Of a stretch of 64,000 bases of DNA, positions 2,871-40,458 are shown one piece after another (position 1 is the stretch's first letter; the number at the start of each line of letters is the position of its first letter). The stretch lies in NCBI GenBank assembly GCA_035550055.1, contig DASZRO010000018.1, positions 94,743 to 158,742 of the forward strand. The letters run 5' to 3'. A program made the position numbers and the translations under genes. The notes beneath the pieces are model-generated. The model ran no database searches. It had not been told where the DNA came from and worked only from the letters and a program-made list of their open reading frames with translations. Origin of the DNA: Mycobacteriales bacterium. GTDB taxonomy: Bacteria; Actinomycetota; Actinomycetes; JAFAQI01.

Positions 2871-4094
2871 TCAGCCTCGGCTGCCTGCGGCAGGGCTGAA
2901 CCGCACCGGCATCGACTCGTAACCCGACACGAAGTTCGCCGGACGGTACGCCGGCTCGGCGTCGTCGACCAGCGCGATGTCCGGGAGCCGCCGCAGCAGC
3001 GTCTCGAAGAAGCACACCAGCTCGAGGCGAGCCAGGTTGTTCCCGAGACAGAAGTGAGTCCCGATGCCGAACGCAACGTGGTCGTTCGGCGTACGCCCGA
3101 TGTCGAACCGGAACGGGTCGACGAAGACCGACGCGTCGCGGTTCGCCGAGGGATAGAGCAGCAGCAGCTTGTCGCCGGCGGCCAGCCGTTGGCCGCCGAC
3201 CTCGGTGTCGGCGACGACGGTGCGTGCCATGTTCTTGATCGGACTCACCCACCGCAGCATCTCCTCGACCGCCAGCGGGATCCGGGTCGGGTCGTCGATC
3301 AGGGTCTGTTTCGCCTCGGGGTTGCGTAGCAACTGGTAGAGCCCACCGCTGATCACGTGGCGAGTGGTCTCGTCACCGCCGATCAGGATGAGCAGGGCGT
3401 CGTGGATGACGTCTTCGAGGTTGACGTCCTCGCCGTCCGTGCCGCCCTGCACCAGCAGGCTCACCAGGTCTTCTCCCGGTGCGCGCCGCCGATCCTCGAT
3501 CGCCGCCGTCGCGAACTCGCGGAAGCCGGCGTAGGCCTGCGCCGCCGGCAGCATCGCCTCCGGGTCGGCGTTGCCGACGAGTGCCTTCAGCATGTCGTCT
3601 GACCACTCGAGCAGAGACCGCCGCTGCGACTCCGGGAAGCCGAGCATGTCGCCGATGACGTGCATCGGCAGCCACGCGGCGAGATCGCGGACCGCGTCGC
3701 ACTCGCCGCGTTCACAGACGTCGTCGATGATCCGTTCGCACCACGCGTTGATCGGCTCCACCGAGTCGGCGAGGCGGCGGGGCGTGAAGCCGCGGTTGAC
3801 CATGTTGCGGCGGCGTTTGTGCTCCGCACCGTCCTGGTCGATCATCATCGGGATCGCGGCGTTGTCGGGACGGATCCCCCCGCCGTTGCAGAACTGCTCC
3901 GGGTGCAACGAGACGTACTTGAGGTCGGCATGGCAGGCGATGCCCCACACCTGGCCGTCCCAATAGACCGGAGCGTTCTCCCGCAGCCAGGTGAGCTCCC
4001 CGTGCGGGTTTCGCCCCCAGAACTCGCCGCTGACGAGGTCGATCGCCGGATTGACCGGGTGGTCGCCCTTGGCGAGTGTCGTACCGGCGGTCAT
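2871..4094 (-). CDS. cytochrome P450, CYP142-like (steroid C26-monooxygenase family)
   Basis: Heme-binding loop AFGIGTHFCLGNNLARLEL plus motifs NGGGIRPD, PMMIDQD and VCERGECDAVRDLAA that closely recall mycobacterial CYP142. Last gene of the P450 operon; 4 nt overlap with the upstream SBP gene. Confidence 0.85.
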   Translation of the reverse strand: MTAGTTLAKGDHPVNPAIDLVSGEFWGRNPHGELTWLRENAPVYWDGQVWGIACHADLKYVSLHPEQFCNGGGIRPDNAAIPMMIDQDGAEHKRRRNMVNRGFTPRRLADSVEPINAWCERIIDDVCERGECDAVRDLAAWLPMHVIGDMLGFPESQRRSLLEWSDDMLKALVGNADPEAMLPAAQAYAGFREFATAAIEDRRRAPGEDLVSLLVQGGTDGEDVNLEDVIHDALLILIGGDETTRHVISGGLYQLLRNPEAKQTLIDDPTRIPLAVEEMLRWVSPIKNMARTVVADTEVGGQRLAAGDKLLLLYPSANRDASVFVDPFRFDIGRTPNDHVAFGIGTHFCLGNNLARLELVCFFETLLRRLPDIALVDDAEPAYRPANFVSGYESMPVRFSPAAGSRG

Positions 4095-5587
4095 CCGCCC
4101 GACCTCGGCAGGAAGCGGCCGTCGCAGCGGTAGCCGGTGGCAGGGTCGTCCACGCGCTCAAAGCCTCCGTTCTCGAGCTTCCACAGGATGTAACAGTGTG
4201 GCCCGCCCTTTGCGCTCGGATCGACCGGAGCGATCAAGCCGTTGGAGTCGAAGTTCTTGATCCGGCGCAGCGAGGCCAGCAGCGTCTTGCGGTCGAGAGT
4301 CGGTCCGGCGGTCTCGGCAGCCTGCTCCAGCATCCGGTCGTCGGCCCATGCGTACATCGCGTAGAGGTTGATCGGCTGTCCCGGATAGGTCCGCGTGAAC
4401 CAGTACTGGAAGAGCTTGACCTCCGGTGTCTCGTCGGCGGGGTCGGTGTTGAAGAACAGGGCGTAGGAGTTCCAGCCGAGGATTCCGTTGAGGTCGGACT
4501 TCGCTCCTGCGTAGTCGCTGAGGAACGCCTGGTCATAGGCGATCGGGATGATGTTGATCAGACTCGACGGGCAGCCCGCCTGGCGTTCGTTCTGGATCAT
4601 CGTCGCGGCATTGCCCGCCGGCTCGGTCAGCTCGAACAGCACCTGGATGTGCTCCTGCTGGCACAGCTTGACGAAGTCGCCCTGGAAGCTGCTGTTCGTC
4701 GGCTGCTCCAGGATGCTGTCGACGAAGTGCCATCCCTCTGCTTGCGCCGAGTGGACCATGTTGGCCTGTTGCGCGACCGCCGACGGGATGTTCTCGACGA
4801 TCGACCCCACGTGGTCGAGCTTCGTCCCGAACTTCTGCTTGTAGTAGCGGAACATGCCGGTGGAGAACCCGCTGCCGCCGGCGGAGATGTCGAAGTGGTT
4901 GGGCGGGGTGTAGGCGGTCGGATCGAGGGCGACGTGGATGTCGGCGACACCAGGGTTTGCCTTCACGATCGAGGCGCCGCAGCCGTCGTAGAGGGCGAAG
5001 GTGCCCGACAGCGCGAAGCTCCTCCCGATCAAGCTCTGTGTCGCGTTCTCGTCCTGCGTGCAGCTCGCCGCGTCGTCGACCACGTCCACCTTCACCTGCC
5101 GACCGCAGATGCCGCCGGAGGTGCTGTTCACGTAGTTCGCGAACGCCTCGCCGCCTTGGACTGCTCCTTCGAACAGCCCGGACACCGGGCCGCTGAGCGT
5201 CGCGACCTCGCCGAGGGTCATCGTCGTCGCGGTCAAGCCGACGTCGGTCCCGCCCGAACAGCTCTGCGCCACCGGAGCGGTCGCCACCGGTGTGGTTGAC
5301 GGACGTCCGGGATTCGCAGCCGAGCCGGTCGTCACACCTGCCGGCGCGCTGGGCTGCGACACAACGCCTGGTACGCCGGAGGGCGCGGCGGAGGCCACCG
5401 CGCTCGCCGACGCGACCGCAGCCACCGCCGGCGGCGGCGCGACCGCTCGGTCGTTCAGGACCGCGTGCTCTGCCTGGCTGCGCACGTCGCCGGGCAGCCG
5501 GGCGCCGCACGCAGTGGACAGCAGCCCGACCAGGGCGGCCGCCACGCGCAGCCGGCCACCGCGCCGCAGTCGGGTGCGGGTGCTCAT
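4091..5587 (-). CDS. lipoprotein, periplasmic solute-binding protein (type I PBP, LivK-like), orphan
   Basis: Signal peptide plus lipobox (LLSTAC), a long Ala/Pro/Ser/Thr-rich linker, then a PBP1 fold. No permease or ATPase genes nearby. Overlaps both neighbouring genes by 4 nt. Confidence 0.7.
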   Translation of the reverse strand: MSTRTRLRRGGRLRVAAALVGLLSTACGARLPGDVRSQAEHAVLNDRAVAPPPAVAAVASASAVASAAPSGVPGVVSQPSAPAGVTTGSAANPGRPSTTPVATAPVAQSCSGGTDVGLTATTMTLGEVATLSGPVSGLFEGAVQGGEAFANYVNSTSGGICGRQVKVDVVDDAASCTQDENATQSLIGRSFALSGTFALYDGCGASIVKANPGVADIHVALDPTAYTPPNHFDISAGGSGFSTGMFRYYKQKFGTKLDHVGSIVENIPSAVAQQANMVHSAQAEGWHFVDSILEQPTNSSFQGDFVKLCQQEHIQVLFELTEPAGNAATMIQNERQAGCPSSLINIIPIAYDQAFLSDYAGAKSDLNGILGWNSYALFFNTDPADETPEVKLFQYWFTRTYPGQPINLYAMYAWADDRMLEQAAETAGPTLDRKTLLASLRRIKNFDSNGLIAPVDPSAKGGPHCYILWKLENGGFERVDDPATGYRCDGRFLPRSGG

Positions 5588-6003
5588 CGCCGGTCGTCAC
5601 CGGATCCCGGAAAGGCACGCTTGGCGCCGCGACCGCGGTGCGCCGAGACCCGCTCCTCGACCACCCCGTTCAACGACGAACCCCGCGGCCAGCCCACGTA
5701 GTGGGTGAGGAAGACGACGACCTCACGCAGCTCGGCTGCGGTCATCTCGTCGTTGGACAAGATCGCGTCCACCTGGATCGGCAGCACCGACCATTCGCCG
5801 AGCGCCGCGATCACCCCGAGCAGCAGCATCCGGCGGTCGCGGATCGACAACCCGTCGCGCGACCAGACCTCTCCGAAGAGGTGGTCCACCGTCATCGCGA
5901 AGAAGTCACCCGCCACCTCGGGCACGTCGTCCCAGGCATAGACCTCTGCCATCCTCGCCTTGCCCTGCGCATGGCGCTGGGCGCGATCGACGTCCTCAGT
6001 CAT
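5584..6003 (-). CDS. carboxymuconolactone decarboxylase (AhpD-like) family protein
   Basis: ATG chosen internal to the track ORF (MTEDVDRAQ...). CMD-domain-like helical protein of about 139 aa. The longer N-terminal extension is Arg/Ser-rich and overlaps the upstream gene. Confidence 0.6.
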   Translation of the reverse strand: MTEDVDRAQRHAQGKARMAEVYAWDDVPEVAGDFFAMTVDHLFGEVWSRDGLSIRDRRMLLLGVIAALGEWSVLPIQVDAILSNDEMTAAELREVVVFLTHYVGWPRGSSLNGVVEERVSAHRGRGAKRAFPGSGDDRR

Positions 6004-6862
6004 GCGCACCCTCCCGAGGCACTCGCAGCGCCGCCGCCAGCGACGCCAGTCCGAGCCGCCCGAACGGCAGGTCCACGCCCAGCGCGGCGCCGAGGTCGAG
6101 GGCGTGTTGCAGGTCCTTCTCGCCGAGCTCGCGGGTGTGCTCGAAGATCGGCCGCAGCGGGTCGTCATCGGCGTACGGGTCCTGCGTCGGCGAGATCATG
6201 ACCACGGACGGGCCGCCGATGACGGCATCGCTGTGGCGGATCGCGGCGGCGAGATCGAGCACGTCGACGCCCGCGGCATGAGCGAGTCGCGCCACCTCGC
6301 CGGTCGCGGCGTAGCCGACGAACTGGAGCAGGTTTCGGACGACCTTCGCGCGGATTCCCGCTCCCGAAGCCCCGAAGTACAGCAACAGCGACGCCCAGCG
6401 TTCGAACACCGGCTTCGCCCGCTCGTAGGCAATGCGGTCTCCGCCCGCCATCGCGACGAGCTGCCCGGAGTCGGCACCCGCCGGGCCGCCGGTCAGCGCG
6501 ACGTCCAGGACCGCCACGCCGCGCTGCTCCCCGGCGGCGGCCAGTGCGGGCGCCGTCTCCACGTCGATCGTCGAGTGCACCGCGATCACAGTCCCCGGTG
6601 CCGCGTGCTCGATCAGCTCCTTGACGACCTCACGCACCTGCGCGTCGGTCAACACGACGACCGAGATCACGCTCGCGGCCGACGCCAGGTCACGCAGATC
6701 GCCAGCGGCTCGGGCGCCGGCATCGACGAGCGGAGTCGCGGCCGCCGGGTCGACGTCGTACACCGACAGACCACCAGGCCAGTCGATGAGGCGCTTTGCC
6801 AGCGCTCCGCCCATGTTGCCCAGCCCGACGACTCCGACGCCGACGGCCGCCGCCTCACTCAC
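5996..6862 (-). CDS. NAD(P)-dependent oxidoreductase, 3-hydroxyisobutyrate/6-phosphogluconate dehydrogenase family
   Basis: N-terminal GVVGLGNMGG Rossmann motif and the beta-hydroxyacid dehydrogenase fold. The GTG start at 6862 gives a GTGA overlap with the upstream NTF2-like gene. Confidence 0.75.
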   Translation of the reverse strand: MSEAAAVGVGVVGLGNMGGALAKRLIDWPGGLSVYDVDPAAATPLVDAGARAAGDLRDLASAASVISVVVLTDAQVREVVKELIEHAAPGTVIAVHSTIDVETAPALAAAGEQRGVAVLDVALTGGPAGADSGQLVAMAGGDRIAYERAKPVFERWASLLLYFGASGAGIRAKVVRNLLQFVGYAATGEVARLAHAAGVDVLDLAAAIRHSDAVIGGPSVVMISPTQDPYADDDPLRPIFEHTRELGEKDLQHALDLGAALGVDLPFGRLGLASLAAALRVPREGAHD

Positions 6863-7413
6863 GGCAGGGGCGGCCACAGCGGAGCGGGAAGCTCACCGCG
6901 GCGGTAGTGTCCCGGCAGCCGTTCGCCGCTGGCGGCGCGTTCCATCCGCGAGCGCATCCCGTCCGACAGCACGCCGGCGTTGATCATCTCGAAGAACAGC
7001 GAACCGGCGTTCATGTGGTCGAAGAAGTCCCGCTGCCAGGCCCACCCCTGCGGGCTGTAGCCGAACCAGCTCGCACCGAAGCCGGCGACTTCGTACGGCG
7101 AGCCGTCGGGTCGGGTCACGTCGGCGACCTGCTTCCAGAACCCGATGATCATCCCGGCACGGTCGTCGATCATCGTCGCCTGGTACGGGTAGCTCCACCC
7201 CTCGAGCCCTTCCATCTCGAGGCCGAGCGCCTTCTCCCGGATCTCGTCGCGACCGACCGCCATGAACTCGTCGTTCGCACCGCAGTTCCAGCCGTACGTC
7301 GCGTCGGGTGCGAAGAACTCGGCCAGCGCCGACCAGTCGCGATTCGCCTCGCACGACTTGTTGGCGTCCAGCCAGCGCTGCCAGAACGCCTCCATCTCGG
7401 TGCGGTCGGGCAT
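6859..7413 (-). CDS. NTF2-like / SnoaL-like (ketosteroid-isomerase fold) protein
   Basis: About 185 aa from the internal ATG (MPDRTEMEAFWQRWLDANKS...). NTF2-like cone fold signature. 1 nt TGATG overlap with the ferredoxin gene. Confidence 0.65.
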   Translation of the reverse strand: MPDRTEMEAFWQRWLDANKSCEANRDWSALAEFFAPDATYGWNCGANDEFMAVGRDEIREKALGLEMEGLEGWSYPYQATMIDDRAGMIIGFWKQVADVTRPDGSPYEVAGFGASWFGYSPQGWAWQRDFFDHMNAGSLFFEMINAGVLSDGMRSRMERAASGERLPGHYRRGELPAPLWPPLP

Positions 7414-7610
7414 CAGTAGCCTCCCTCGATCGTCAGCGCGCGTGTGGGGCAGTACGTCACCGCCAGCCGAACCGCCTCTTCGTGCTCGGGCGGCACGGAG
7501 TCGACGAGCAGCTCGACCTGGTCGGACCTGCCGACCTGGAAGACCTCGGGCGCCTCGAGCTCGCACATGGCATGGCCCTGACACAGGTCACGATCGACGC
7601 TGACTCTCAT
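7413..7610 (-). CDS. fdx: ferredoxin (single-cluster 3Fe-4S/4Fe-4S), P450 redox partner
   Basis: 65 aa with the CQGHAMC...CP cysteine pattern. Sits immediately downstream of cyp51 with a 4 nt overlap, as in the M. tuberculosis Rv0764c-Rv0763c pair. Confidence 0.85.
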   Translation of the reverse strand: MRVSVDRDLCQGHAMCELEAPEVFQVGRSDQVELLVDSVPPEHEEAVRLAVTYCPTRALTIEGGY

Positions 7611-8962
7611 GACGCCCTCCGGGGACGCACGCGAACGGCACAGGGCTGCTGGAGCTGGACCACCATCTTGGAATGATCATTGCGGTAGGAGTCGGCCGGC
7701 TGCGCCAGCTCGAAGCGGTAGTCGCGCAGCAGCACCGAGAAGATGGCCTTCAGCTGCATCATCGCGAACGCCGCTCCGACGCAGCGATGACGGCCACCAC
7801 CGAACGGGATCCAGGTCCACGGGTTGAGGTCGTCCTCGCGTCGCGGATCGAGATAGCGCGACGGATCGAAGGTGTCGGCGTCGGGAAAGTCCGGGGTGAG
7901 CCGGTTCGAGATCGCCGGGCTCGCCGCCACCAGGTCACCTTTGCGGACCGCGTAGCCACCGACCGCCAGGTCCTCGGTCGCGACACGCAGCAGCAGGATC
8001 AGGGGCGGATGCAGCCGAAGCGCTTCCTTGATCGCAGACTCGAGCCGCGGGATCTCCCGCAGGGCCTGGAAGCTGACAGCTGACCCGTCGGCGTACAGCT
8101 CGTCGAGCTCGGCGGTCACCGCGGCGAGCTCATCGGGATGGCGCAGCAGCTCGATCAGCGTCCAGGCCGCGGTGCCCGACGTCGTGTGGTGGCCGGCGAA
8201 CATCAGCGAGATGAACATCCCCGTGATCTCGTCGGCGGTGAACCGCGGCTGGTCGTCGACGGTGAGCGACATCAGTACGTCGAGCAGGTCTTTGTCGCCG
8301 GTCACCGCGCCCGACGTGCGGGCGGCCATGATGCCGACCACCAGGTCGACGAGCGCCAGCCGCGCTTCGTCTCGTCGACGGAAGCTTTCAATCGGCGCAT
8401 ACGCGTCGACGTAGGCGAGCGCGTCGGTTCCGCGCTCGAGATCGTGGTAGTAGCTCGCGAACCGGCCGTCGAGCTGCTCGCGGAACTTCTGCCCGATCAG
8501 GCAGGCCGAGGACGTGTAGATCGTGAGCTCGGCGAAGAAGTCGAGCAAGTCGATCGTCCGTTCACCCGACCAGTCGGCAACCGCCCGCTCGACTTCCGCC
8601 GCGATGACCTCGGCGTGGCCCTTCATCTGCGGGCCTCGCAGCGACGAGTTCTTCAGCATCTCGGCGCGGCGTTCGGGCGGCGCGTCGAACACCACGCCCT
8701 GACCGAAGATCGGGGTCATGAACGGGTACGCCGCGCCTTGGTCGAGCAGCTCGTCCGGTGCGCGGAAGTACCACTCGTTGACCTCCTTGCCGCAGACCAG
8801 CACGACGTCGCGGCCGGCCAGCTCGAAGCTGCCGACCTCACCGCACTCGTCGTGCACGCGACGCATCAACCCGATCGGGTCGCAGCGCAGCTCCTCGAGA
8901 TGGCCGTGTTCGTGCTCACCTCCGGACACCCGTGGTGGACGCGGCAGGGTCGGGCTCAGCAT
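7607..8962 (-). CDS. cyp51: sterol 14-alpha demethylase, cytochrome P450 CYP51
   Basis: FGGGRHRCVGAAFAMMQLKAIFSVLLRDYRFELAQPADSYRNDHSKMVVQL and long N-terminal stretches are near-identical to M. tuberculosis CYP51. Confidence 0.92.
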   Translation of the reverse strand: MLSPTLPRPPRVSGGEHEHGHLEELRCDPIGLMRRVHDECGEVGSFELAGRDVVLVCGKEVNEWYFRAPDELLDQGAAYPFMTPIFGQGVVFDAPPERRAEMLKNSSLRGPQMKGHAEVIAAEVERAVADWSGERTIDLLDFFAELTIYTSSACLIGQKFREQLDGRFASYYHDLERGTDALAYVDAYAPIESFRRRDEARLALVDLVVGIMAARTSGAVTGDKDLLDVLMSLTVDDQPRFTADEITGMFISLMFAGHHTTSGTAAWTLIELLRHPDELAAVTAELDELYADGSAVSFQALREIPRLESAIKEALRLHPPLILLLRVATEDLAVGGYAVRKGDLVAASPAISNRLTPDFPDADTFDPSRYLDPRREDDLNPWTWIPFGGGRHRCVGAAFAMMQLKAIFSVLLRDYRFELAQPADSYRNDHSKMVVQLQQPCAVRVRPRRAS

Positions 8963-9001
8963 TGCGCGGCCGCCGTCATCGCAGCTCCTCGTGGTCGGAT
9001 C

Positions 9002-10195
9002 TCATTGCAACGTCACCGACGTCGGCAGGTGCGCGAAGCCGCGCACGTTGACCGAATGGACCCGGTGCGCGTTCGCCTCGTCCACGTCGTAGCCCGAGAC
9101 GCGCGACACCAGCTGTTCGAGCACGACCTTCGCCTCGAGCCGGGCGAGTGAGGCTCCGAGACAGAAATGCCGGCCCGACCCGAAGCTGAGCAGTTCGGAG
9201 GTGTCACGGTCGAGGTCATACCGGTCGGGTTGCGGGAACACCCGCTCGTCCCGGTTCGCCGACCCGATGAGCAGCAACACCCGCGAGCCGGCGGGCATCG
9301 TCACGTCCGCGACCGTCACGTCGGTGGTCGTCGTACGCGCCAGCATCTGTGTCGAGTTGTCGTAGCGCAGCGTCTCCTCGACCCACGCCGCCACTGCGGC
9401 GCGGTCACCCAGCGGCTTGGCCAGCTGTTCGGGGTGACGCCATCCCCAGTACCAGCAGTGTCCGAGCAGCTTCGTCGTGGTCTCGTTGCCGGCCACGACC
9501 ATGAGGAACAGGAACGCGCCGAGCTCGTCGTCGCTGAGTCGTTCACCGTCGATCTCCACGTCGAGCAGCGCCGAGGTGAGGTCGTCTCGCGGTTGTCTGC
9601 GCCGGGTCGCAATCAGCTCCAGGTAGTAGACCGCGAGCTCGATCGAGGCGGCCGCTGCCGCTTGCGGCACGTCGTACACACCGTCGTCTCGGTGGACGAC
9701 GACGTCGGCGAGGCGCCGCAGCTCGGCCCGGTCCGCCGTGGGCACCCCCAGCAGCTCGGACACCACGTCCATCGGCACCTTGCCGGCAACGTCCTCGATG
9801 AAGTCGAACGTGCCCCGCTCCAGCGCCGGCATCAGATGTGCGTCCGTGATCGCGCGCACCCGCGGCTCCAGGTCCTGGACGCGCCGTGGCGTGAACCCCT
9901 TCGACACCAGCCGTCGCATCCGGCCGTGGCGCGGCTCGTCCATGGCGAGGAACGACATCACCCTGGCGGCCTGCGGTCCGGTCGCCGCCGGGTCGAGCGA
10001 GACCCCGTCGGCACTGGAGTACCGCTCGTCATCACGGAACGCCGCCGCCACGTCGGCGTGGCGGGAGATCGCATAGAACCCGTGGTCGGTGTTGCGGTAG
10101 ACCGGCGCGTGCGCGCGCAGCACCGCGTAAGTCGGATACGGGTCCTCGTGGATCGCATAGTCGTACGGGTCGTACGCCGGAACGGTCGACGTCAT
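9002..10195 (-). CDS. cytochrome P450 (CYP123-like)
   Basis: Heme loop FGSGRHFCLGASLARLE, EXXR and the P450 fold. The position upstream of cyp51 mirrors M. tuberculosis cyp123. Confidence 0.85.
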   Translation of the reverse strand: MTSTVPAYDPYDYAIHEDPYPTYAVLRAHAPVYRNTDHGFYAISRHADVAAAFRDDERYSSADGVSLDPAATGPQAARVMSFLAMDEPRHGRMRRLVSKGFTPRRVQDLEPRVRAITDAHLMPALERGTFDFIEDVAGKVPMDVVSELLGVPTADRAELRRLADVVVHRDDGVYDVPQAAAAASIELAVYYLELIATRRRQPRDDLTSALLDVEIDGERLSDDELGAFLFLMVVAGNETTTKLLGHCWYWGWRHPEQLAKPLGDRAAVAAWVEETLRYDNSTQMLARTTTTDVTVADVTMPAGSRVLLLIGSANRDERVFPQPDRYDLDRDTSELLSFGSGRHFCLGASLARLEAKVVLEQLVSRVSGYDVDEANAHRVHSVNVRGFAHLPTSVTLQ

Positions 10196-10785
10196 CGCGG
10201 TTCCGTCATCAACGCGGTTGCGTCCGCCATCAGCGAGGGCAGATCGTCGTACCTCGCATAACCCATGCCGGCCGAGAGCAGCGCCCCGATGAACGTGAAC
10301 GTCAGGACCGCAGCAACCCGAGAGTCCTCGTCGCGGCCGAGCGCGTCCGCGAGCCGCTTGCCGATCGCGGAGCCGATTCGGTCGCGCAGGACCTGCACGT
10401 CGGCGTCGTGCGCGAGCAGGGCCGTCGTGACGCCCGCGGCGAGCTCCGGCTCGTCCGCGACGAGCAACGCAACCGACCGCATCGCGTCAGCGACGCGATC
10501 CGCCCGCCGCTGACGTCGGCTCGGCGCCGGCGGGTCGAGCGCGTCGAGCCGGCGCCAGAAGACCTCCGTCAGCAGGTGCTCCTTGCTCGCGAAGTACGTG
10601 TACGCCGTCGCCGGCGACACCCCAGCCCGGCGCGCGACCGCGCGCACGGTCAGACCGTCGAAACCGGTCTCGGTGACCTCGGCCACCGCCGCGTCGACGA
10701 GTGCGGTCACGGTGTCCGCCTGCCGACGCGCGAGCGCCCGACGGGGCGCCTCCGAGGCGGCCGGACTGGACACGTGTCCAGACAC
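10192..10785 (-). CDS. TetR/AcrR family transcriptional regulator
   Basis: HTH segment LTVRAVARRAGVSPATAYTYFASKEHLL. Start uncertain: the GTG at 10785 avoids a 60 nt overlap, whereas the track ORF extends to 10854. 4 nt overlap with the downstream P450. Confidence 0.7.
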   Translation of the reverse strand: MSGHVSSPAASEAPRRALARRQADTVTALVDAAVAEVTETGFDGLTVRAVARRAGVSPATAYTYFASKEHLLTEVFWRRLDALDPPAPSRRQRRADRVADAMRSVALLVADEPELAAGVTTALLAHDADVQVLRDRIGSAIGKRLADALGRDEDSRVAAVLTFTFIGALLSAGMGYARYDDLPSLMADATALMTEPR

Positions 10786-10792
10786 TAGACCG

Positions 10793-12064
10793 TCAGGGCG
10801 AGGTTGTGAAGCCGGCCTGCCGGGAAGGCTCGCGGAACCGGAACGCGGCACCACTGCTGATCTTGGCGATGCTCAGCTCGGGCGGCTCGGCGATCGGCGC
10901 AGCCTCCGGGTCGAGCCGGATCCGATAGGAGTGGAGCTCGCCGGCAGCCGGCGTCGTCGGGGTCAGCCGGGCGTGAGGGTCGAACGCCGCGACGATCTGG
11001 GCGAGCGCGGCGTCGACCGCGCCACCGAGGGCAGTGACCCAGGTGAGCGCGTCACCCTCCTGCGCGGCCGCACAGTCGCGAAAGCCGAGCCGCACCGCGT
11101 CGCCGTCGATCTCGACCGAAGCTGCGACGTAGCGACGCGGGGCGAGCATCGGATGGAGCGCCAACATCGTCGCGAGCCCAGAAAGATCGCCGGCGAGGCC
11201 GAGTGCGTCGCGCAGCCGCTGCGCGGTCAGCCCGCACCAACCGGTCAGCAGCCGCGGCAGGATCTGCGCCGCCCGGTCTGCGCCGAGACGGCGACTCACG
11301 CTGAGCAAGAGAGAGCGCAGCAACAGGTGGCTCTGCAGCGCGAACTCCTCGCAAGCCACCTCGAGGGCGGACCGCGAGAAGTCCTCCAACCGAAGGTCCG
11401 GATCGAAAGGACCGCTGTAGTCGGTGCGTCCGGCGCCGCCGGCGGAGTCGGGCGAGCGGACGTCGAGCTGCGCTGCCCGGGACCGGGCGACCTCCGCTTC
11501 GAGCGGGTGCGGCGCGACAGGAGCAGCCGCGGCGGTGATGTCGATGCGCCAGTGGCAGTGGGGAGTGCGGCCGGCGGGGACGCGCGGCGGCCGGTGCAGC
11601 GGCCGGATGGCGGCACGCGGATTGGTCGCTGCTGCTGTCGCGTCGAACGTCGGATCCTCGATCGTGTGGCACATCCCGTGAACGAAGTCCACGCCCATCG
11701 GCTCGACGTCCATCAGCGCGCCGCAGTGCGCCAGCCAGAACTCCGCGTGCTCGGCGTCGATCAGCCGGAAGCGGAAGTCCATGAACTCGTGCGGCGCGCC
11801 GATGTCGAGCTGCAGGTTCTTGCAGATCGTCTCCACACCGTCGCCGGGGAAGCGCAGCGCCTGCTGCATCCGCCGCGAGTAGACCGGACTGGCTGCCATC
11901 CACTCGTCGATCGCGATCTGCTGCATCTCCTCGCGCCCGACGCTCTCCATCACCAGCGCCATGCCGACCCGGTCCTGCAGATGGCCGTGCAGCAACCACT
12001 CCCGTCCGAGCACCGCAAGGGTCGGGTGATCCAGATCGGACAGGTACGGCGCGGCCGGGCTCAC
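10793..12064 (-). CDS. hypothetical protein (423 aa, no recognisable domain)
   Basis: Long ORF in the coding-strand frame between the MFS and TetR genes. No motif I can assign. Confidence 0.5.
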   Translation of the reverse strand: MSPAAPYLSDLDHPTLAVLGREWLLHGHLQDRVGMALVMESVGREEMQQIAIDEWMAASPVYSRRMQQALRFPGDGVETICKNLQLDIGAPHEFMDFRFRLIDAEHAEFWLAHCGALMDVEPMGVDFVHGMCHTIEDPTFDATAAATNPRAAIRPLHRPPRVPAGRTPHCHWRIDITAAAAPVAPHPLEAEVARSRAAQLDVRSPDSAGGAGRTDYSGPFDPDLRLEDFSRSALEVACEEFALQSHLLLRSLLLSVSRRLGADRAAQILPRLLTGWCGLTAQRLRDALGLAGDLSGLATMLALHPMLAPRRYVAASVEIDGDAVRLGFRDCAAAQEGDALTWVTALGGAVDAALAQIVAAFDPHARLTPTTPAAGELHSYRIRLDPEAAPIAEPPELSIAKISSGAAFRFREPSRQAGFTTSP

Positions 12065-12087: not shown

Positions 12088-13500
12088 TCACTGCGCGAGC
12101 AAGCCGAAGCAGCCCAGGACGGCGAAGCCGACCAGCGGCCACGCCAGTCCGCCCGATGCGGTGAAGGTGAGCACGGCGAGCGCCGTACCGGCGGCCGTGC
12201 CGAGCCCGCGCGTCATGTTGAGCAGCCCGGCCACCGCGCCCGAGGTGCCGGTCGGCGCCGCGAGCATCACCGAGCGGTTGTTCGCCGGGGTGAACGTGCC
12301 GATGCCGAGTCCGACTGCACCCAGCGTCAGCGCGAGCACCGGGCCGGCCGGACGCGTCACGGCGGTGATCGCCAGCGCAGCGACCGTCAGCATCAGCCCT
12401 GATCGAGCCACTCGGCTCGGCATCCGGTCGGCGAGGCGACCGGCGAGCGGCGCCGCGACTCCGATGCCCAGCGGCAGTGCCGCGGTGAGCAAACCGACTG
12501 CGGTCGTGCCGAGATGACGATCGCGGGTCAGGAACAGCGGCACCACCACCAGCGTCCCGAACAGCGCGGCGTATCCGCACAACGCTGCCGACAGCCCTCG
12601 TCGCAGGCCTGGCGCGCTGAGGACGACCGGCTGCACGAGCGGCGCGGCGCTTCGACGCTGGTGTCGCCCGGTCACGATCGCGACGACGACCGCCGTCGCG
12701 CCCGCGACACCCGCCGCGACCCCGTCGCGCGACTGGCCGGCAAACGACATCGCCAGCAGCCCGACCGCGACCGCGGCGACGAACAGCGCGATGCCGCGCG
12801 GGTCGATCCGGCGGGCAGGTGCGAGGTCACGACTGCGCGGCAGCAGCATCGCAGCGGTGCCCAACCCGACGATCCCAGCGGGCACGTTGACGAGGAACAG
12901 CAGCCGCCAGCTGCCCGCTGACAGCAACAGCCCGCCGAGCGCCGGGCCTCCCGCGAGGCCGATCGCCTGCGCAGCTGCCTGCAGCCCGACCATTCGGCCC
13001 AGCCGGGCGCGCGGCGCCACCGCCGCGATCAGCGCGACACTGTTCGCCTGCATCAGCGCCGCGCCGACCGCCTGCACGACCCGGCAGCCGCACAGCGCGG
13101 GTAGGTCAGGGGCGATGGCGCATGCGGCACTGGCCGCGGCGAACACGGCGAAGCCGGCGATGTAGAGCGCCTTGCGGCCGACGCTGTCCGCCCACGCACC
13201 GATCGGCACGACCAGCGCGACGAGGGTCAGCACGTAGGACAACGACACCCACTCGACCGCTCCGACGCTCGCATGGAACGAGCCGGACATCCGGGGCAGC
13301 GCAACGCTGACGATGCTGGCGTCGAGTTGGCCCATGAACGCGCCGATGCACACCGTCGCGACGGCGAAGATCGGCGCTCGCGGCGATGCCGCGATCCGGC
13401 GGGGCCGGGCCGGCTCGAGCAAGCTGAGCAGGCGATAACCCGGCACACCCTGCGGTGGCCCGACCCTCCCGAGTCCAGCACCGACCGGCTGATTCTGCAT
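12088..13500 (-). CDS. MFS transporter, DHA2 (14-TMS drug:H+ antiporter) family
   Basis: 470 aa with about 14 hydrophobic segments and MFS motifs (GxLaDrxGrk-like). Divergent from a MarR gene. Confidence 0.8.
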   Translation of the reverse strand: MQNQPVGAGLGRVGPPQGVPGYRLLSLLEPARPRRIAASPRAPIFAVATVCIGAFMGQLDASIVSVALPRMSGSFHASVGAVEWVSLSYVLTLVALVVPIGAWADSVGRKALYIAGFAVFAAASAACAIAPDLPALCGCRVVQAVGAALMQANSVALIAAVAPRARLGRMVGLQAAAQAIGLAGGPALGGLLLSAGSWRLLFLVNVPAGIVGLGTAAMLLPRSRDLAPARRIDPRGIALFVAAVAVGLLAMSFAGQSRDGVAAGVAGATAVVVAIVTGRHQRRSAAPLVQPVVLSAPGLRRGLSAALCGYAALFGTLVVVPLFLTRDRHLGTTAVGLLTAALPLGIGVAAPLAGRLADRMPSRVARSGLMLTVAALAITAVTRPAGPVLALTLGAVGLGIGTFTPANNRSVMLAAPTGTSGAVAGLLNMTRGLGTAAGTALAVLTFTASGGLAWPLVGFAVLGCFGLLAQ

Positions 13501-13577: not shown

Positions 13578-14042
13578 ATGCCCGCCTCCCGCCGGTCGAC
13601 CACCGCCGACCTGGACGCGCTGGCCGACGTCGTCACCAGGCTCCGGCGCGCGCTGCGCCGCGTCGTCCGCTCGGACCTGCCGTTCGAAACGCTGCCGATG
13701 GCTCAGATCGAGGTGATGCAGCTACTGGCTGAGCGACCAGGGCTGCGCGCCGGCGAGGTGGGCGAGGCGCTGCTGCTCGCGCCGACCACCGTCAGCACGC
13801 TGATCGGGACGTTGCTCGCGCAGGACCTGATCGATCGCCAGCCGGATCCGGCGGATCGCCGCGCGTGGCGGTTGGTGCTCACCGCGGAGGGTGAAGCCCG
13901 CCTCGCCGACTGGCAGCAGTCCAACCGCCGGGTCATGCGCTCAGCCGCGAGCGGCTTGGCCGACGAGGACCTGGTGGCGCTACGCAACGCACTGCCCGCG
14001 CTCACCCGGCTCGTCACGGAACTGGACGGAAACCGCCAGTGA
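13578..14042 (+). CDS. MarR family transcriptional regulator
   Basis: Winged-helix segment LPMAQIEVMQLLAERPGLRAGEVGEALLLAPTTVSTLIGTLLAQDLIDRQPDPADRRAWRL. Divergent from the MFS gene. Confidence 0.85.
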   Translation: MPASRRSTTADLDALADVVTRLRRALRRVVRSDLPFETLPMAQIEVMQLLAERPGLRAGEVGEALLLAPTTVSTLIGTLLAQDLIDRQPDPADRRAWRLVLTAEGEARLADWQQSNRRVMRSAASGLADEDLVALRNALPALTRLVTELDGNRQ

Positions 14043-14542
14043 GTCAGGGAGCCGATCCCAGCCGGTGGCCGGTCGACCCCGATGTGACGGCCGACGATGC
14101 CGCAGCGCCCCGGCACACGCTCATCGACGCGCGACGGGTGGCCGTCGTCTTCGCAGGTGGCCTGGTCGGCGGGTGTGCACGGTACGAAGCGGTCACCCAC
14201 TGGGCGAGCGCTGCGGGCCGGTTCCCGTGGTCCACGTTCGTCGTGAACACGGTGGGCGCGTTCGTTCTGGGCGTCCTGGTCGTCGTCGTGTCGGAGGTCC
14301 TCGGACCGTCGACGTACGCCCGACCGTTGATCGGCGCCGGGTTCTGCGGCGCGCTGACCACCTTCAGCTCCGTCGCGGTGCAGTTCGACGAGCTCGCCGC
14401 GCACGGACATCTCGGCCTCGGCTGCGGCTACCTGTTCGCAAGCCTCGTCGCCGGCCTCGTGGTCGCGGCGACAGGTGTGTGGTTCGCTCGCCGGCTGCCC
14501 CCGACCGCAGCGCGGCGCGCCCTGACCGCAGAGCCTGGCTGA
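14039..14542 (+). CDS. crcB: fluoride ion channel CrcB/FluC
   Basis: Motifs GGLVGGxxRY, FPWxTFxVNxxGAFxLG and GFCGALTTFSS. The N-terminal extension means the start may be later. Confidence 0.85.
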   Translation: MSQGADPSRWPVDPDVTADDAAAPRHTLIDARRVAVVFAGGLVGGCARYEAVTHWASAAGRFPWSTFVVNTVGAFVLGVLVVVVSEVLGPSTYARPLIGAGFCGALTTFSSVAVQFDELAAHGHLGLGCGYLFASLVAGLVVAATGVWFARRLPPTAARRALTAEPG

Positions 14543-14910
14543 TGGTCCTCGCGCTGCTCGTCTCGCTCGCCGCGGCACTCGGCGCGGTCGGCCGCTACAC
14601 GCTGGACACAGCGGTCCAACGCCGTCATCGATCCGCGCTGCCGTGGGGCACGTTCGTCATCAACGTGACGGGGTCGTTCGTACTAGGCCTCGTGACCGGC
14701 ATCGCCACTCATCACGGCTTCCCCAGCCGTGCGACGACGACCATCGGCACCGGCCTGTGCGGCGGTTACACCACCTGGAGCACCTTCCTCTGGGAGTCCT
14801 TCGCCCTCGCCGAGCAAGGCCGGCCGCTCGCTGCGGCGAACAATGTGCTCGGCAGCCTCACCATCGGATTGGCCGCCGCGGCTGCCGGGCTTGGTCTAGC
14901 TCTGCTTTAG
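14542..14910 (+). CDS. crcB: fluoride ion channel CrcB/FluC (second protomer)
   Basis: ATG overlaps the previous stop (TGATG). PWGTFVINVTGSFVLG and GLCGGYTTWSTF motifs. Confidence 0.85.
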   Translation: MVLALLVSLAAALGAVGRYTLDTAVQRRHRSALPWGTFVINVTGSFVLGLVTGIATHHGFPSRATTTIGTGLCGGYTTWSTFLWESFALAEQGRPLAAANNVLGSLTIGLAAAAAGLGLALL

Positions 14911-33302: not shown

Positions 33303-35315
33303 TCAGGCCAGGGCGGCGACGAGGGCCGGGGCGTTCGGCGTACCGAGGCCGGTCGAGTCGTCGTAGCCGGGCAACGCCTGCAAGGTTCCGAGTACGCCGA
33401 TCGTTCGCAGCGTGTAGATGACCGCGGACTTCGGGTTGTCCCCGGTCGTGTAGTCCGGCCGGACGTCGGCCAGGCGGGTCAGCGCACCGCGCTTGGCCAC
33501 CGGCACCGGGTCGTAGAACAGCCGCTGCCGCTGCGCCGCGGTGCGCGAGTCGGCGTACATCGTCGGTGTCACCAGCCCGAGCCGGTGATGCGCCTCGGCG
33601 TCCGCGAGCGCCAGCAAGCCGGTGAACAGCGGCGAGGCCAGACTGGTCCCGCCGATCCGGTACTCGCCATAGCGGGTCGCGCCATCGGCGAAGCTCTGCG
33701 TCAGCCCGAGCGCGATCCCGGTGGTCGGGTCGGCGACCATCGACACGTCCGGCTCGACGCGGCCCGGCTGCATCAACCCGCCGTACGTCGCCTCGTCAGC
33801 CGGCACGATCCCGTACTGCCAGGCCGGCTCGCGGAAGATCGTGCTGTCGCCGCCGCCCCCGCCGTACATGTAGACCTTGTGCTGGTAGTCCCACTTCCCC
33901 TTGGTGAACGGGATCTTCTGCGTCCCCCAGTACGACTCGGAGACGCGCGCTCCGGTTCGCCCGATCTGCAGCGTCGTGCCGCCGACCGTGACGACCCCGG
34001 GGCTGGTGGTCGGGAAGTCCGCGACCCGATGCCCGGTGAGGGCGAGCTCGTCGCCGTCGTCACCGGAGGAGAAGGCGATCGTGACACCTTCGGCGGCGGC
34101 CTCGTTCGTGATCGCGTTGAGCACCTGTACGTCGCCGAGCACGGTGTCTTCGCTGTCATCCCCCCACGAGTTGCTCACCAGGTCGACCTTGCCGCTCTCG
34201 ACGGCTTGCGCCAGCGCGAGCAGGAGGTTGTCGACGCCGACCCCGATGCCTGCGACCTCTTCGTACGGGAGGTTGGCGACGGCCGAGTAGTAGGCGATGC
34301 TCGCGTCGGGCGCCATCCCGTGAACCGCTTCGATGTCGAGGGTCTCCTCACCGGCCCAACCCTGTCCGTCGAGGATCGGTACGCCGAGCAACGACAGCTC
34401 CGGCAGGCTCGACTCACCGGGGAAGGTGTGCTGCGTGAGCTGGCCGGGCCGCAACCGCGGCAGCCCCATCCGCTGCGACCACGTGTCGACGTCGGACTCG
34501 ACGGTCGGCGAGGCGTAGGCGTCGACGATCCCGACGGTGACGCCGCGGCCGGTCGAGTGCACCTGGTTCACGCCGTACGCCGAACGGATCTGGCCCATCG
34601 TGTAGCCGCAGACCGCGTACGGCGCGTGCCGGCCCTGGTAGGAGGGCAGCGTCGAGGCGACCTTCTGCCCGTAGTAGCGCGAGCACGGATGCGCGTTGAT
34701 GTACCCCGTCGGTGGTGACGCGTCCGACACCGCCGGGGTCTGCGCGAGCCCGACCACTGTCGCCGCGAGCGGCCGCAGCGCAGTGGGCATCGTCGGCTGC
34801 GACAGCGGCGCGCGCAGCAGGCGGCCGGCGACGTCGAACAGGCCGAAGGTCGTGGCGAACACCTTCCCGACCAGCGCGGACGTGGCGTGTGCCGTGATCA
34901 GCGTGCCGCCGGGCGTCGTGTTGTCGATCGTGAACCCCGCGTGCCGCAGCCAGGTCCGCGCCGCGGCCGTCTCGGCCGGCGCCGGTCCGAACCGGCGGGC
35001 GAACTCGGCGCGGGTCAGGAAGTGCCGGTACGACGCCGACGTCGGGTCGCTGACCGCCGCGTCGAAGCGCCGCAACGCGGCCGGATGACGACCCTTCAGC
35101 AGCACCGAGAACTGCACCAGCGCGTCCGGCGACTCGAGCTTCGCCGGCAGGACGTCTCGCGCCCACGCCGGGATCGCCTCGATCACCGACGCGAGGCTCC
35201 GCACCGGTTGCGCGGTCGGGCCAGCGGCGAGCGCCGGCGCTTCCAGGGCGGTGACCGCGAGTACTGCGGCGGCCGCGGCGAGGCGCAGGGTCGACCCGGT
35301 CTTCACCCCGCTCAT
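33303..35315 (-). CDS. secreted S53 family peptidase (sedolisin) with pro-kumamolisin activation domain
   Basis: Signal peptide, N-terminal pro-kumamolisin activation domain, and a catalytic Ser in GGTSLASPLFTG. Confidence 0.85.
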   Translation of the reverse strand: MSGVKTGSTLRLAAAAAVLAVTALEAPALAAGPTAQPVRSLASVIEAIPAWARDVLPAKLESPDALVQFSVLLKGRHPAALRRFDAAVSDPTSASYRHFLTRAEFARRFGPAPAETAAARTWLRHAGFTIDNTTPGGTLITAHATSALVGKVFATTFGLFDVAGRLLRAPLSQPTMPTALRPLAATVVGLAQTPAVSDASPPTGYINAHPCSRYYGQKVASTLPSYQGRHAPYAVCGYTMGQIRSAYGVNQVHSTGRGVTVGIVDAYASPTVESDVDTWSQRMGLPRLRPGQLTQHTFPGESSLPELSLLGVPILDGQGWAGEETLDIEAVHGMAPDASIAYYSAVANLPYEEVAGIGVGVDNLLLALAQAVESGKVDLVSNSWGDDSEDTVLGDVQVLNAITNEAAAEGVTIAFSSGDDGDELALTGHRVADFPTTSPGVVTVGGTTLQIGRTGARVSESYWGTQKIPFTKGKWDYQHKVYMYGGGGGDSTIFREPAWQYGIVPADEATYGGLMQPGRVEPDVSMVADPTTGIALGLTQSFADGATRYGEYRIGGTSLASPLFTGLLALADAEAHHRLGLVTPTMYADSRTAAQRQRLFYDPVPVAKRGALTRLADVRPDYTTGDNPKSAVIYTLRTIGVLGTLQALPGYDDSTGLGTPNAPALVAALA

Positions 35316-39245: not shown

Positions 39246-39439
39246 CCGTCGGTCGGGGCCCGAAATCCCCGGTCGGTGAGCTCGCGGCGCGTCCCGCGTC
39301 ACGCCCGGCCGAACGTGTCGTTATTGTGTGCGGGCGCGCCCAACCGGGCGCGCGTCGCATTCGCACCGCCAAACCTGTCCGGCGAATGCGTCGCCTTCAA
39401 TCCCAGACGGACGGGGCCGGGGACCCAAAAGTTCTACCC

Positions 39440-39556
39440 AGCAACTGGAACGCGCACGCGCGTTTCACGGAGCGATTCGCTCCTTGGGGTGAAGCCGTCT
39501 CACGACGGCCGGGTGATCCACTCACCCGAACCCGACAGCTAACTCGGCAGGCGTCG
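39440..39556 (+). ncRNA. candidate ydaO-type (c-di-AMP) riboswitch in the NlpC/P60 leader
   Basis: Segments TTGGGGTGAAGCC, CCGGGTGATCC and ACCCGAACCCGACAGCTAACTCGGCAGGCG resemble conserved ydaO blocks. The SD sequence GGAG lies just downstream. Confidence 0.4.
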
Positions 39557-39567
39557 GAGTGGACTTC

Positions 39568-40377
39568 ATGCTGCCTTCGCATACCTGTGCCCGCTTTCGC
39601 ACCGTCGTACTCGCCGGCCTGACCGCCGGTTTGGTCGTGTCCGCCGCCGGTACTGCCTCCGCCGCCCCGACCGGGCGACCCACGAGCACCGCGACCGACA
39701 CCGAGACCCACTCGGGGACGAACTCCGGGTCCCACTCGGGGACGAACTCCGGGACGGCGAGCCCCGCCGACCCCACCCCGACCGACCCGACCACGACGAG
39801 CCCGTCCGACCCGACCGCGCCCACATCTCCTGGCGATCCGGGCGCGGCGACCGGCGATCCGAGCGATCCGACGACCGGCCCGACACTTCCGATCGACCCG
39901 AACCTGCCGGCCATCACCTTCGAGCTGCCGCAGGCCAGCGCCCACTTGCGCTACGAGCGCGCCCGGTTGCGCCGCCGCGAATGGCACCAGCACGCGGTGA
40001 GCGCGGTGCTCACGGAGGCGCGCCGCCAGGCCGGCAAGCCGTACGTCTACGGCGCAGCCGGACCGAGTTCCTTCGACTGCTCCGGGCTGGTCCGCTACGT
40101 CTTCGGCCACGCGATCGGTGACTGGCTGCCGCACAACGCCGCCGCGCAGTACGCCGTCATCGAACACATCAAGCGTCGTGACCTCGAGCCGGGCGACCTT
40201 GTCTTCCAGGAGTCGGGCGGCTACCCGTTCCACGTCGGGATCTACGCCGGCCACGACAAGTGGTGGCACGCGCCGCACACCGGCGCGGTCGTGCACAAGC
40301 AGACGATCTACCGCGGCCACCTGTTCTACGGCCGAGTCCTCACCAGCCGGATGGCCCGGCAGCGCACCCGCCACTAA
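39568..40377 (+). CDS. secreted NlpC/P60 family peptidoglycan hydrolase
   Basis: Signal peptide, a Thr/Pro/Ser-rich linker, and C-terminal YVYGAAGPSSFDCSGLVRYVFGHAIG...H...H. The ATG at 39568 has an RBS; the track's alternative start is at 39559. Confidence 0.8.
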   Translation: MLPSHTCARFRTVVLAGLTAGLVVSAAGTASAAPTGRPTSTATDTETHSGTNSGSHSGTNSGTASPADPTPTDPTTTSPSDPTAPTSPGDPGAATGDPSDPTTGPTLPIDPNLPAITFELPQASAHLRYERARLRRREWHQHAVSAVLTEARRQAGKPYVYGAAGPSSFDCSGLVRYVFGHAIGDWLPHNAAAQYAVIEHIKRRDLEPGDLVFQESGGYPFHVGIYAGHDKWWHAPHTGAVVHKQTIYRGHLFYGRVLTSRMARQRTRH

Positions 40378-40458
40378 GAAAACACAAACGTGACGCGTGA
40401 GCCCTCCTGAGGCGGGTCACCCACCTCAGGAGGCTGCTCTCGTCACGTTTGTGTTCGC
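40378..40458. repeat. nested palindrome P1: GAAAACACAAACGTGACG..[CCTCCTGAGG-loop-CCTCAGGAGG]..CGTCACGTTTGTGTTCGC
   Basis: 15 bp outer arms and 10 bp inner arms read directly. The right arm encodes the C-terminus of the 40426-41352 gene. Confidence 0.8.

Follow-up and report, generated by a model that had tools for sequence, protein, structure and literature searches.

A rearranged, lineage-specific HpoR-type CYP51 operon in an uncultured Mycobacteriales bacterium and its possible role in the oxidation of a sterol-like lipid

Introduction

The closest described relative of the locus analysed here is the hpoR operon of mycobacteria, where HpoR (Rv0767c/MSMEG_5860), a TetR-family repressor, binds the experimentally defined box GGACANNTGTCC upstream of the operon (PMC5909442). 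The operon is repressed by HpoR, responds to cyclic di-GMP (c-di-GMP) and hydrogen peroxide (H2O2), and is needed for H2O2 resistance, and in M. smegmatis it was already known to contain three cytochrome P450 (P450) genes (PMC5909442). In Mycobacterium sp. VKM Ac-1817D, phytosterol raises the expression of the regulon under the Rv0767c orthologue more than 3-fold, its members including a 'steroid delta-isomerase', three P450s, an alcohol dehydrogenase (ADH), an aldehyde dehydrogenase (ALDH), short-chain dehydrogenases/reductases (SDRs) and cyp125 (PMC6593523), while CYP123 of M. abscessus hydroxylates progesterone and 11-deoxycorticosterone in vitro (PMC12799577). Here we describe a related locus in a window of 64 kb (contig DASZRO010000018.1, ~70% GC) from the metagenome-assembled genome (MAG) of an uncultured Mycobacteriales bacterium, in which a TetR gene, three P450 genes including cyp51, and five further genes form a single operon. 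An initial annotation of the window had called the physiological role of the related M. tuberculosis (Mtb) locus still unknown, a view made outdated by the published H2O2/c-di-GMP control, phytosterol induction and CYP123 activity; it had also allowed that the cluster might simply mirror a characterised pathway in close relatives, and there the regulation is characterised but the pathway is not.

Homology, gene order and operator identify the region as a rearranged form, specific to this lineage, of the actinobacterial CYP51/CYP123 (hpoR) cluster, Rv0762c-Rv0771/MSMEG_5855-5865. With modest confidence, we read it as an HpoR-type, autorepressed nine-gene operon that would oxidatively tailor an exogenous sterol-like (triterpenoid or steroid) lipid. 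What appears new is the addition of a lipoprotein solute-binding protein (SBP) and a CYP142-family P450, the joining of Rv0770/Rv0771 counterparts to the unit, the loss of SDR, ALDH and ADH genes, the phylum-wide occurrence of the HpoR box, and the association with a conserved gene that we call hyp423. What bacterial CYP51 acts on in the cell, where the organism does not make sterols, is a question dating from the M. tuberculosis genome, and the window does not answer it.

A nine-gene operon with an HpoR-type operator

The region from 10773 to 2871 is a genuine nine-gene operon on the minus strand (Table 1). All nine open reading frames (ORFs) lie at the coordinates listed, and they recur in the independent public gene call of L081, another assembly of this organism. 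The domains of the three P450s, along with Peripla_BP_6, CMD, NAD_binding_2/11, Fer4_15 and TetR_N, are borne out by Pfam and NCBIfam. The genes overlap by 1-8 nt throughout, apart from one 39-nt gap between the cyp123-type P450 and cyp51. The initial annotation had described a chained run of seven genes from 8962 to 2871, whose coordinates and junctions are reproduced by our reading of the sequence, and whose genes recur in L081. It had not listed the ATGA shared by the TetR and cyp123-type genes, and because of this junction, together with the other overlaps, the coupled chain extends from the regulator to the last P450 with the 39-nt spacer as its sole break. The operon as such therefore stands, but two further co-directional genes, hyp423 and a major facilitator superfamily (MFS) transporter gene, lie upstream of the bounds first drawn. 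We considered whether the overlap chain is statistically unusual and rejected this, since overlaps are equally common elsewhere in the genome, where 7 of 12 same-strand junctions outside the cluster overlap by 1-4 nt; the overlaps support an operon, yet they are a general habit of this genome.

Table 1. Features of the CYP51 operon and the genes directly upstream of it, in order of transcription (positions in the 64-kb window).
Feature	Coordinates	Strand	Description and basis	Junction with next gene
MFS transporter	12088-13500	-	Pfam MFS_1	23 nt upstream of hyp423
hyp423	10793-12064	-	423 aa, conserved, without Pfam family	
Candidate -10 hexamer	10782-10787	-	TAGTGT (TANNNT), 8 nt upstream of the TetR start codon	
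HpoR-type operator	10766-10781	strandless	perfect 16-bp palindrome CTGGACACGTGTCCAG; sequence	
TetR-family repressor	10192-10773	-	193 aa; HpoR orthologue (Rv0767c/MSMEG_5860); Pfam TetR_N	ATGA, 10192-10195
cyp123-type (third) P450	9002-10195	-	cyp123 (Rv0766c) positional orthologue; Pfam p450	39-nt gap, 8963-9001
Mini-ORF	8956-8979	-	7 codons (MTAAAQC*), in the 39-nt spacer; sequence	
CYP51	7607-8962	-	451 aa; sterol 14-alpha-demethylase family	ATGA, 7607-7610
Small ferredoxin	7413-7610	-	65 aa; Pfam Fer4_15/Fer4_13; counterpart of Mtb Fdx Rv0763c	TGATG, 1-nt overlap at 7413
NTF2/SnoaL-fold protein	6859-7413	-	184 aa; positional counterpart of Rv0762c	GTGA, 6859-6862
Beta-hydroxyacid dehydrogenase-like oxidoreductase (HIBADH family)	5996-6862	-	Rv0770 counterpart; Pfam NAD_binding_2, NAD_binding_11	8-nt overlap, 5996-6003
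CMD-family (carboxymuconolactone decarboxylase-like) protein	5584-6003	-	139 aa; Rv0771 counterpart; Pfam CMD	ATGA, 5584-5587
Lipoprotein SBP	4091-5587	-	Peripla_BP_6; Pfam	ATGA, 4091-4094
CYP142-family P450	2871-4094	-	407 aa; last gene of the operon	

The operator overlaps the start of the regulator gene. At its core, GGACACGTGTCC (10768-10779) agrees exactly with the published HpoR box; the operator occurs as a single copy in the window, 12 bases past the stop codon of hyp423, and its centre is the GTG start codon of the TetR gene, in frame. This start differs from the one first proposed, at 10785 (or 10854), which was not upheld: GTG 10773 aligns with the ATG of the conserved 'MSS...' N-terminus of the relatives, and the Mycobacterium positional orthologues (42-43% identity by tblastn) share both this N-terminus and the helix-turn-helix. 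The public 172-aa start in the L081 gene call was likewise rejected, since it cuts helix 1 short and passes over the conserved MSS start. The earlier proposal that the locus is under the control of its TetR gains support from the exact HpoR operator at the regulator start, which is a predicted binding site. The candidate -10 hexamer has counterparts of the form TANNNT at the same position in relatives (TACTGT, TATATT, TAATCT and TAACTT), an arrangement that suggests a leaderless or near-leaderless transcript starting inside the operator. A consensus scan of the window returned 0 promoters and about as many terminators as chance would give, and is uninformative in 70% GC DNA.

To place the operator in a wider context, we compared 80 loci, denoted by L numbers, from species-representative genomes of Actinomycetota, covering Mycobacteriales, Rhodococcus, Saccharopolyspora, Streptosporangiaceae and many Acidimicrobiia; the nearest CYP51 loci, at 80-89% identity, are from soil Mycobacteriales and Frankiales MAGs. 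The strict motif TGGACAnnTGTCCA (the HpoR-type box is also written TGGACANNTGTCCA) has 39 occurrences, spread over 37 of the 80 loci, at cluster promoters and across Actinomycetes and Acidimicrobiia, where base frequencies lead us to estimate about 0.1 chance occurrences in 1.6 Mb. The box coincides with the TetR start or lies closely upstream of it; Saccharopolyspora has it at the P450 start, and two Frankiales MAGs upstream of hyp423. In the Saccharopolyspora loci L036, L041, L042, L046 and L053 (~8019-8032), it overlaps the start codon of the cyp123-type P450, and the TetR gene lies 2.5 kb away. Because the HpoR box and the core of CYP51, ferredoxin and NTF2-fold protein are conserved into Acidimicrobiia, the system is phylum-wide, rather than a mycobacterial stress device.

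The 39-nt spacer occupies the position of the Rv0765c-type SDR in relatives. Within it, the mini-ORF is preceded by a GAGGAG Shine-Dalgarno sequence (8985-8990), and its stop codon falls 2 nt past the ATG of cyp51, a gene with no good Shine-Dalgarno sequence of its own. Speculatively, the mini-ORF may act as a termination-reinitiation relay that preserves translational coupling across the spacer.

Rearrangement of the hpoR cluster

As a reference for gene order, we used L069, a Mycobacterium sp. locus in the exact Mtb Rv0761c-Rv0771 order (PMC10470581). Here, the CMD, HIBADH-like, SDR and ALDH genes are on one strand, and the TetR, P450, SDR, CYP51, ferredoxin, NTF2 and ADH genes are on the other. 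The synteny with the Mtb cyp123/cyp51 locus that the initial annotation had pointed to is real, the window being homologous to Rv0761c-Rv0771, and three departures from it stand out. First, the dehydrogenase and CMD genes are paired in a divergent unit in most loci and follow the NTF2 gene only in the clade of the window (L001-L005 and L007); by homology, they are the Rv0770/Rv0771 counterparts, relocated from the divergent unit into the operon. Second, an SDR-sized gene lies between the two P450 genes in 61 of 65 loci, while the Rv0765c-type SDR is missing in the window and in L002-L005, and present in L001, L006 and L007. The junction sequences left by its loss differ between the window and L002-L004, and L001, the closest relative of the window, keeps the gene, which suggests that the loss was repeated and independent. 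Third, tblastn with Mycobacterium and L001 proteins found no ALDH or ADH in the whole window, and three SDR queries found only one generic SDR, at 59.6 kb, with 31-38% identity; the SDRs and aldehyde dehydrogenase of the hpoR cluster (Ms5858, Ms5862 and Ms5859; Rv0765c, Rv0769 and aldA) have no match in the window cluster. Judged across the surveyed loci, the SBP, the CYP142-family P450 and the loss of the Rv0765c-type SDR are lineage-specific. In functional terms, the Rv0770/Rv0771 pair would be tied to CYP51 closely enough to join one coupled unit, with SDR, ALDH and ADH dispensable, and taken together these lineage features offer a compact minimal gene set for heterologous reconstitution.

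The gene losses bear directly on whether the cluster serves a general redox or oxidative-stress defence, in which HpoR would sense H2O2-raised c-di-GMP and the P450s and dehydrogenases would repair or remove oxidised cellular lipids or aldehydes with no dedicated sterol substrate. HpoR orthology and the exact operator fit such a role, as do the de-repression by H2O2/c-di-GMP and the H2O2-resistance phenotype in M. smegmatis and BCG (PMC5909442), and the whole Mtb Rv0762c-Rv0771 set co-responds to aldehyde stress (PMC10470581). However, the ALDH and SDRs that aldehyde detoxification would call for are the very genes lost here, the CYP51 retains its sterol-demethylase signature at ~70% identity to the Mtb enzyme, the operon has acquired a steroid side-chain oxidase of the CYP142 family, the CxxC of AhpD-type peroxidases is missing from the CMD protein, and phytosterol induction has been reported (PMC6593523). 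We therefore regard a pure defence role as rather unlikely; the stress phenotype could also be indirect, in which case it is compatible with a sterol substrate.

The CYP51, ferredoxin and NTF2-fold core

P450 families are assigned at no less than 40% identity to named members, with a subfamily line at 55%. Against CYP51B1, the CYP51 scores 691 bits for the M. marinum enzyme and 685 bits for that of Mtb, with 69.7% identity to the latter over 439 residues, and it keeps the B'-helix motif AYPFMTPIFGQGVVFDA and the I-helix AGHHTTSG. By family-level identity and both helix motifs, the CYP51 assignment holds, as does the family placement in the initial annotation. Work attributed to Bellamine in 1999 is said to have found that Mtb CYP51 demethylates sterols in vitro. 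The ferredoxin carries the cluster motif CxxHxxC...CP (CQGHAMC...CP in the sequence) and follows cyp51 immediately in all 78 loci, and the NTF2-fold gene comes next after it in 77 of 78. The NTF2-fold protein scores slightly below the Pfam cut-off for SnoaL_2, and a PDB sequence search found no match. This gene had first been taken for a ketosteroid-isomerase (KSI)-fold expansion of the locus, which its position does not bear out: by synteny, it is the Rv0762c orthologue and part of the invariant core.

That CYP51, ferredoxin and NTF2 are kept together across the phylum argues for a housekeeping-like selection, and could instead point to the tailoring of an endogenous envelope isoprenoid (hopanoid-like, carotenoid-derived or another polycyclic triterpenoid), either in biosynthesis or as the remnant of an ancestral sterol pathway (Lamb et al. 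2020). The recruitment of bacterial CYP51 to non-sterol lipid pathways has been proposed (PMC7947880). Against this stand the gene neighbourhood, as neither the window nor the surveyed loci have cyclase, squalene epoxidase or prenyl-pathway genes next to the cluster, the TetR-repressed, inducible design and surface binding protein, which fit uptake and catabolism better than constitutive biosynthesis, and the reported phytosterol induction (PMC6593523). We consider an endogenous substrate very improbable.

The CYP123-type and CYP142-family P450s

The P450 encoded directly after the regulator is 59% identical to the L069 gene in the Rv0766c position, and a cyp123-type P450 lies upstream of cyp51 in 65 of 70 loci. 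Its homologue search returned only the names 'cytochrome P450' and 'hypothetical', with no CYP123 label, and CYP123 is absent from the PDB; the earlier guess that it is CYP123-like is nevertheless supported by its position and by its identity to the Mycobacterium positional orthologue. The last P450 of the operon scores 394-410 bits to CYP142A1-A3 (410 to Mtb CYP142A1), compared with only 311 bits to the reconstructed CYP125 ancestor and ~220 to CYP124. At 51% identity to Mtb CYP142A1 over the full length, above the family rule and below the subfamily line, it belongs to the CYP142 family but outside subfamily A, in agreement with the initial annotation. The PDB entries for CYP142 enzymes carry the annotation steroid C26-monooxygenase. 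The same annotation had also called this gene an expansion of the locus, and the survey identifies it as a lineage-specific addition: a CYP142-family P450 is linked to the cluster only in the clade of the window and in L067, a Streptosporangiaceae MAG, while other lineages carry unrelated third P450s in the cluster. The joining of a CYP142-family oxidase and a surface binding protein to the operon in one soil lineage provides an independent pointer to a sterol-like exogenous substrate.

The dehydrogenase, the CMD protein and the lipoprotein SBP

The dehydrogenase scores under the NCBIfam HIBADH cut-off, and the CMD protein has weak NCBIfam matches to PcaC, far under the equivalog cut-offs. The CMD protein was considered as an AhpD-type peroxidase that would explain the H2O2 phenotype, and this was rejected, because it has no cysteine and hence no CxxC.

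Together with the P450s, these two enzymes would allow a more specific scheme, in which the conserved gene set is a complete P450-based module that strips nuclear methyl groups from sterol precursors of foreign origin (lanosterol, cycloartenol, obtusifoliol or 4-methyl sterols, for example), so that actinobacteria could channel them into steroid degradation. CYP51 would take the C14 methyl, and the CYP123-type P450 would oxidise the C4 methyl to the acid, a reaction for which the sterol C4-methyl oxidase CYP5122A1 of Leishmania provides a P450 precedent (PMC11528044). The dehydrogenase would then oxidise the 3-beta-hydroxy-4-carboxy intermediate, chemically a beta-hydroxy acid, the CMD-type protein would decarboxylate the resulting beta-keto acid, and the NTF2-fold protein would shift the double bond, with the lineage completing the module by means of a surface sterol-binding lipoprotein and the CYP142 side-chain oxidase. 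If true, this would be a third, independent bacterial solution to sterol C4-demethylation, although we consider this scheme quite improbable.

The SBP has a lipobox with its invariant Cys, followed by an Ala/Pro/Ser-rich linker, and its lipoprotein signal ...AC|GARLP is conserved in 6 relatives. No ABC permease or ATPase genes were found in the 64-kb window, so that the description of an orphan binding protein is correct. At its operon position, the SBP is found only in L001-L004 and L007. The subfamily is small, with 1,219 representative clusters at E<=1e-3 among 1.84 billion; a PDB sequence search and tblastn against plasmids found no match, and a metagenome scan found only 3 distant loci (L083-L085), at 36% identity. 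In these three loci, the SBP relative directly follows another TetR gene, 32% identical to that of the window, and is not in a CYP51 cluster. The suggestion that the SBP is HpoR-controlled in Acidimicrobiia as well was rejected, as the second GGAC-N4-GTCC sites there read GGACC or GGACT... and are not HpoR boxes.

Proposed function

Our preferred reading, an inducible operon for the oxidative tailoring of an exogenous sterol-like lipid, draws on the steroid-specific P450 families, the phytosterol induction in mycobacteria, the recruitment of a CYP142-family enzyme and the surface binding protein. In the proposed mechanism, the repressor on its operator would block a leaderless transcript beginning at its own GTG, and release by an inducer would allow TetR, the CYP123-like P450, CYP51, ferredoxin, NTF2-fold protein, dehydrogenase, CMD protein, SBP and CYP142-like P450 to be expressed as one coupled unit; by the mycobacterial reports, the inducing conditions would be c-di-GMP/H2O2 and phytosterol. 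The lipoprotein SBP would capture the lipid at the cell surface, and CYP51, with the adjacent 3Fe-4S-type ferredoxin, would remove or oxidise an angular methyl group. Hydroxylation of the ring system would fall to the CYP123-type P450, and oxidation of the side-chain terminus to the CYP142-type P450. The dehydrogenase and CMD-type decarboxylase would process the hydroxy- and carboxy-intermediates, and the NTF2-fold protein may serve as an isomerase, hydrolase or carrier. Relative to the common form, Rv0770/Rv0771 have moved into the operon in this lineage, the SBP and CYP142 have been gained, and the Rv0765c-type SDR, ALDH and ADH have been lost.

Several observations weigh against this preferred reading. 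The only phenotype for a homologous operon is H2O2 resistance, not sterol use (PMC5909442), and Mtb cyp51 and cyp123 are non-essential, also on cholesterol (PMC6469627). The leaderless start is read from the sequence, and the NTF2 fold match is generic. Among the genes of the 64-kb window, neither an oxidosqualene cyclase or squalene epoxidase nor steroid-catabolic kst/hsa/mce4 genes were seen. To our knowledge, the Peripla_BP_6 proteins so far characterised bind amino acids, amides and aromatic acids, not sterols.

Upstream neighbours and the remaining window

The hyp423 protein has 4,605 homologues, and Pfam and PDB sequence searches gave no match. It is 100% identical to a protein from a MAG recorded as 'Mycobacteriales bacterium'; exact-match look-ups of the CYP51 protein and of a distant peptidase found no record. 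Its ten invariant Cys/His residues (H26, H28, H106, C114, C132, H133, H157, H169, C170 and H186) suggest a metal site. The AF2 model (pLDDT 88.5) is a tandem duplication, for which Foldseek returned 7vqf (probability 0.97, E 0.057) as well as Bet3 and H-NOX matches. The best fold matches, the MopR/DmpR phenol-sensor domains, TRAPP Bet3 and H-NOX, are weak and mutually consistent, and all are small hydrophobic-ligand-binding domains; the model thus points, weakly, to a V4R/MopR-sensor/Bet3/H-NOX-like fold in two tandem copies. In Rhodococcus, Aldersonia, Mycobacterium and Frankiales MAGs, hyp423 accompanies the CYP51 cluster, and in L006 and L008 an HpoR box lies upstream of it, so that an uncharacterised Cys/His-rich family is a companion of the system.

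The similarity of hyp423 to the phenol-sensing domains of MopR and DmpR also raises the question of whether the substrate is aromatic or phenolic, such as an alkylphenol or a lignin-derived acid, and not a sterol. Some members of Peripla_BP_6, the family of the SBP, bind aromatic acids, the CMD family takes its name from an enzyme of the protocatechuate pathway, and p-hydroxybenzaldehyde alters the expression of the homologous Mtb genes (PMC10470581). These similarities are weak and at the level of family or fold, however, with the CMD protein far below equivalog cut-offs and the Foldseek match at E 0.057. Neither ring-cleavage dioxygenase nor beta-ketoadipate genes were seen near the cluster, and CYP51 and CYP142 are steroid-specific families, which makes an aromatic substrate most improbable.

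The MFS gene is conserved in L001-L003 and L007, and is possibly a separate unit. Divergent from it is a plus-strand unit at 13578-14910, with a MarR gene (13578-14042, Pfam) and two CrcB (fluoride channel) genes, for which the public gene call differs from the longest-ORF list. The remaining window is housekeeping in content, with pntAB, citrate synthase, GroEL, OtsA/OtsB, glutamate dehydrogenase and CarD-IspF-CysS. It also holds a SAM riboswitch at 43178-43288 (minus strand, 81.6 bits), upstream of a PLP-dependent enzyme gene (41909-43165), and a c-di-AMP (ydaO-type) riboswitch at 39382-39568 (plus strand, 70.8 bits), with an NlpC/P60 hydrolase gene (39559-40377) directly downstream. Two peptidases of ~670-680 aa each, with pro-kumamolisin-activation and subtilase domains, are encoded in tandem at 33303-37354 (minus strand), and the product of 40426-41352 (minus strand) has an AbiEi antitoxin-like N-terminus and a weak REase_MTES_1575 match at its C-terminus.

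Comparison with known systems

Four described systems resemble the operon in part. Methylococcus capsulatus CYP51fx (PDB 6mcw; Lamb et al. 2020) likewise pairs a CYP51 with a dedicated small ferredoxin. In contrast, the ferredoxin of the window is a separate, translationally coupled gene, its CYP51 scores only ~429 bits to CYP51fx compared with 685-691 to the mycobacterial enzymes, and sterol-synthesis genes are not seen nearby. The best matches of the last P450 are CYP142A1/A2/A3 (PDB 2xkr, 2yoo and 7smz) of the mycobacterial cholesterol pathway, with the heme-binding and I-helix regions conserved, but here the gene lies in a CYP51 operon beside an SBP and not in the kstR regulon, of which no genes were found in the 64-kb window.

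The 'motif X' regulon of regulator G155_05115 (Bragin et al. 2019, PMC6593523) is governed by a regulator of the family found here, whose start codon carries a palindromic box, and it likewise combines an NTF2-type 'steroid delta-isomerase', CYP51/CYP123-type P450s and a steroid C26-monooxygenase. There, the C26-monooxygenase is CYP125, whose gene is in the cluster for cholesterol catabolism and answers to both KstR and motif X, whereas in the window a CYP142-family enzyme is physically within the operon, with no KstR regulon genes in view.

The hpoR operon itself, M. smegmatis MSMEG_5855-5865 or Mtb Rv0762c-Rv0771 (Li et al. 2018, PMC5909442), shares a TetR repressor from one orthologous group, an identical 12-bp box GGACANNTGTCC overlapping the regulator start, the order of regulator, CYP123-type P450, CYP51, ferredoxin and NTF2-fold protein, and Rv0770- and Rv0771-type genes in the set. 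It differs in that counterparts of the Rv0765c SDR, Rv0769 SDR, aldA and adhB are absent from the 64 kb, and in that the window has its Rv0770/Rv0771 genes in one transcription unit instead of a divergent one, a CYP142-family enzyme as the third P450, an inserted SBP, and hyp423 and the MFS gene directly upstream.

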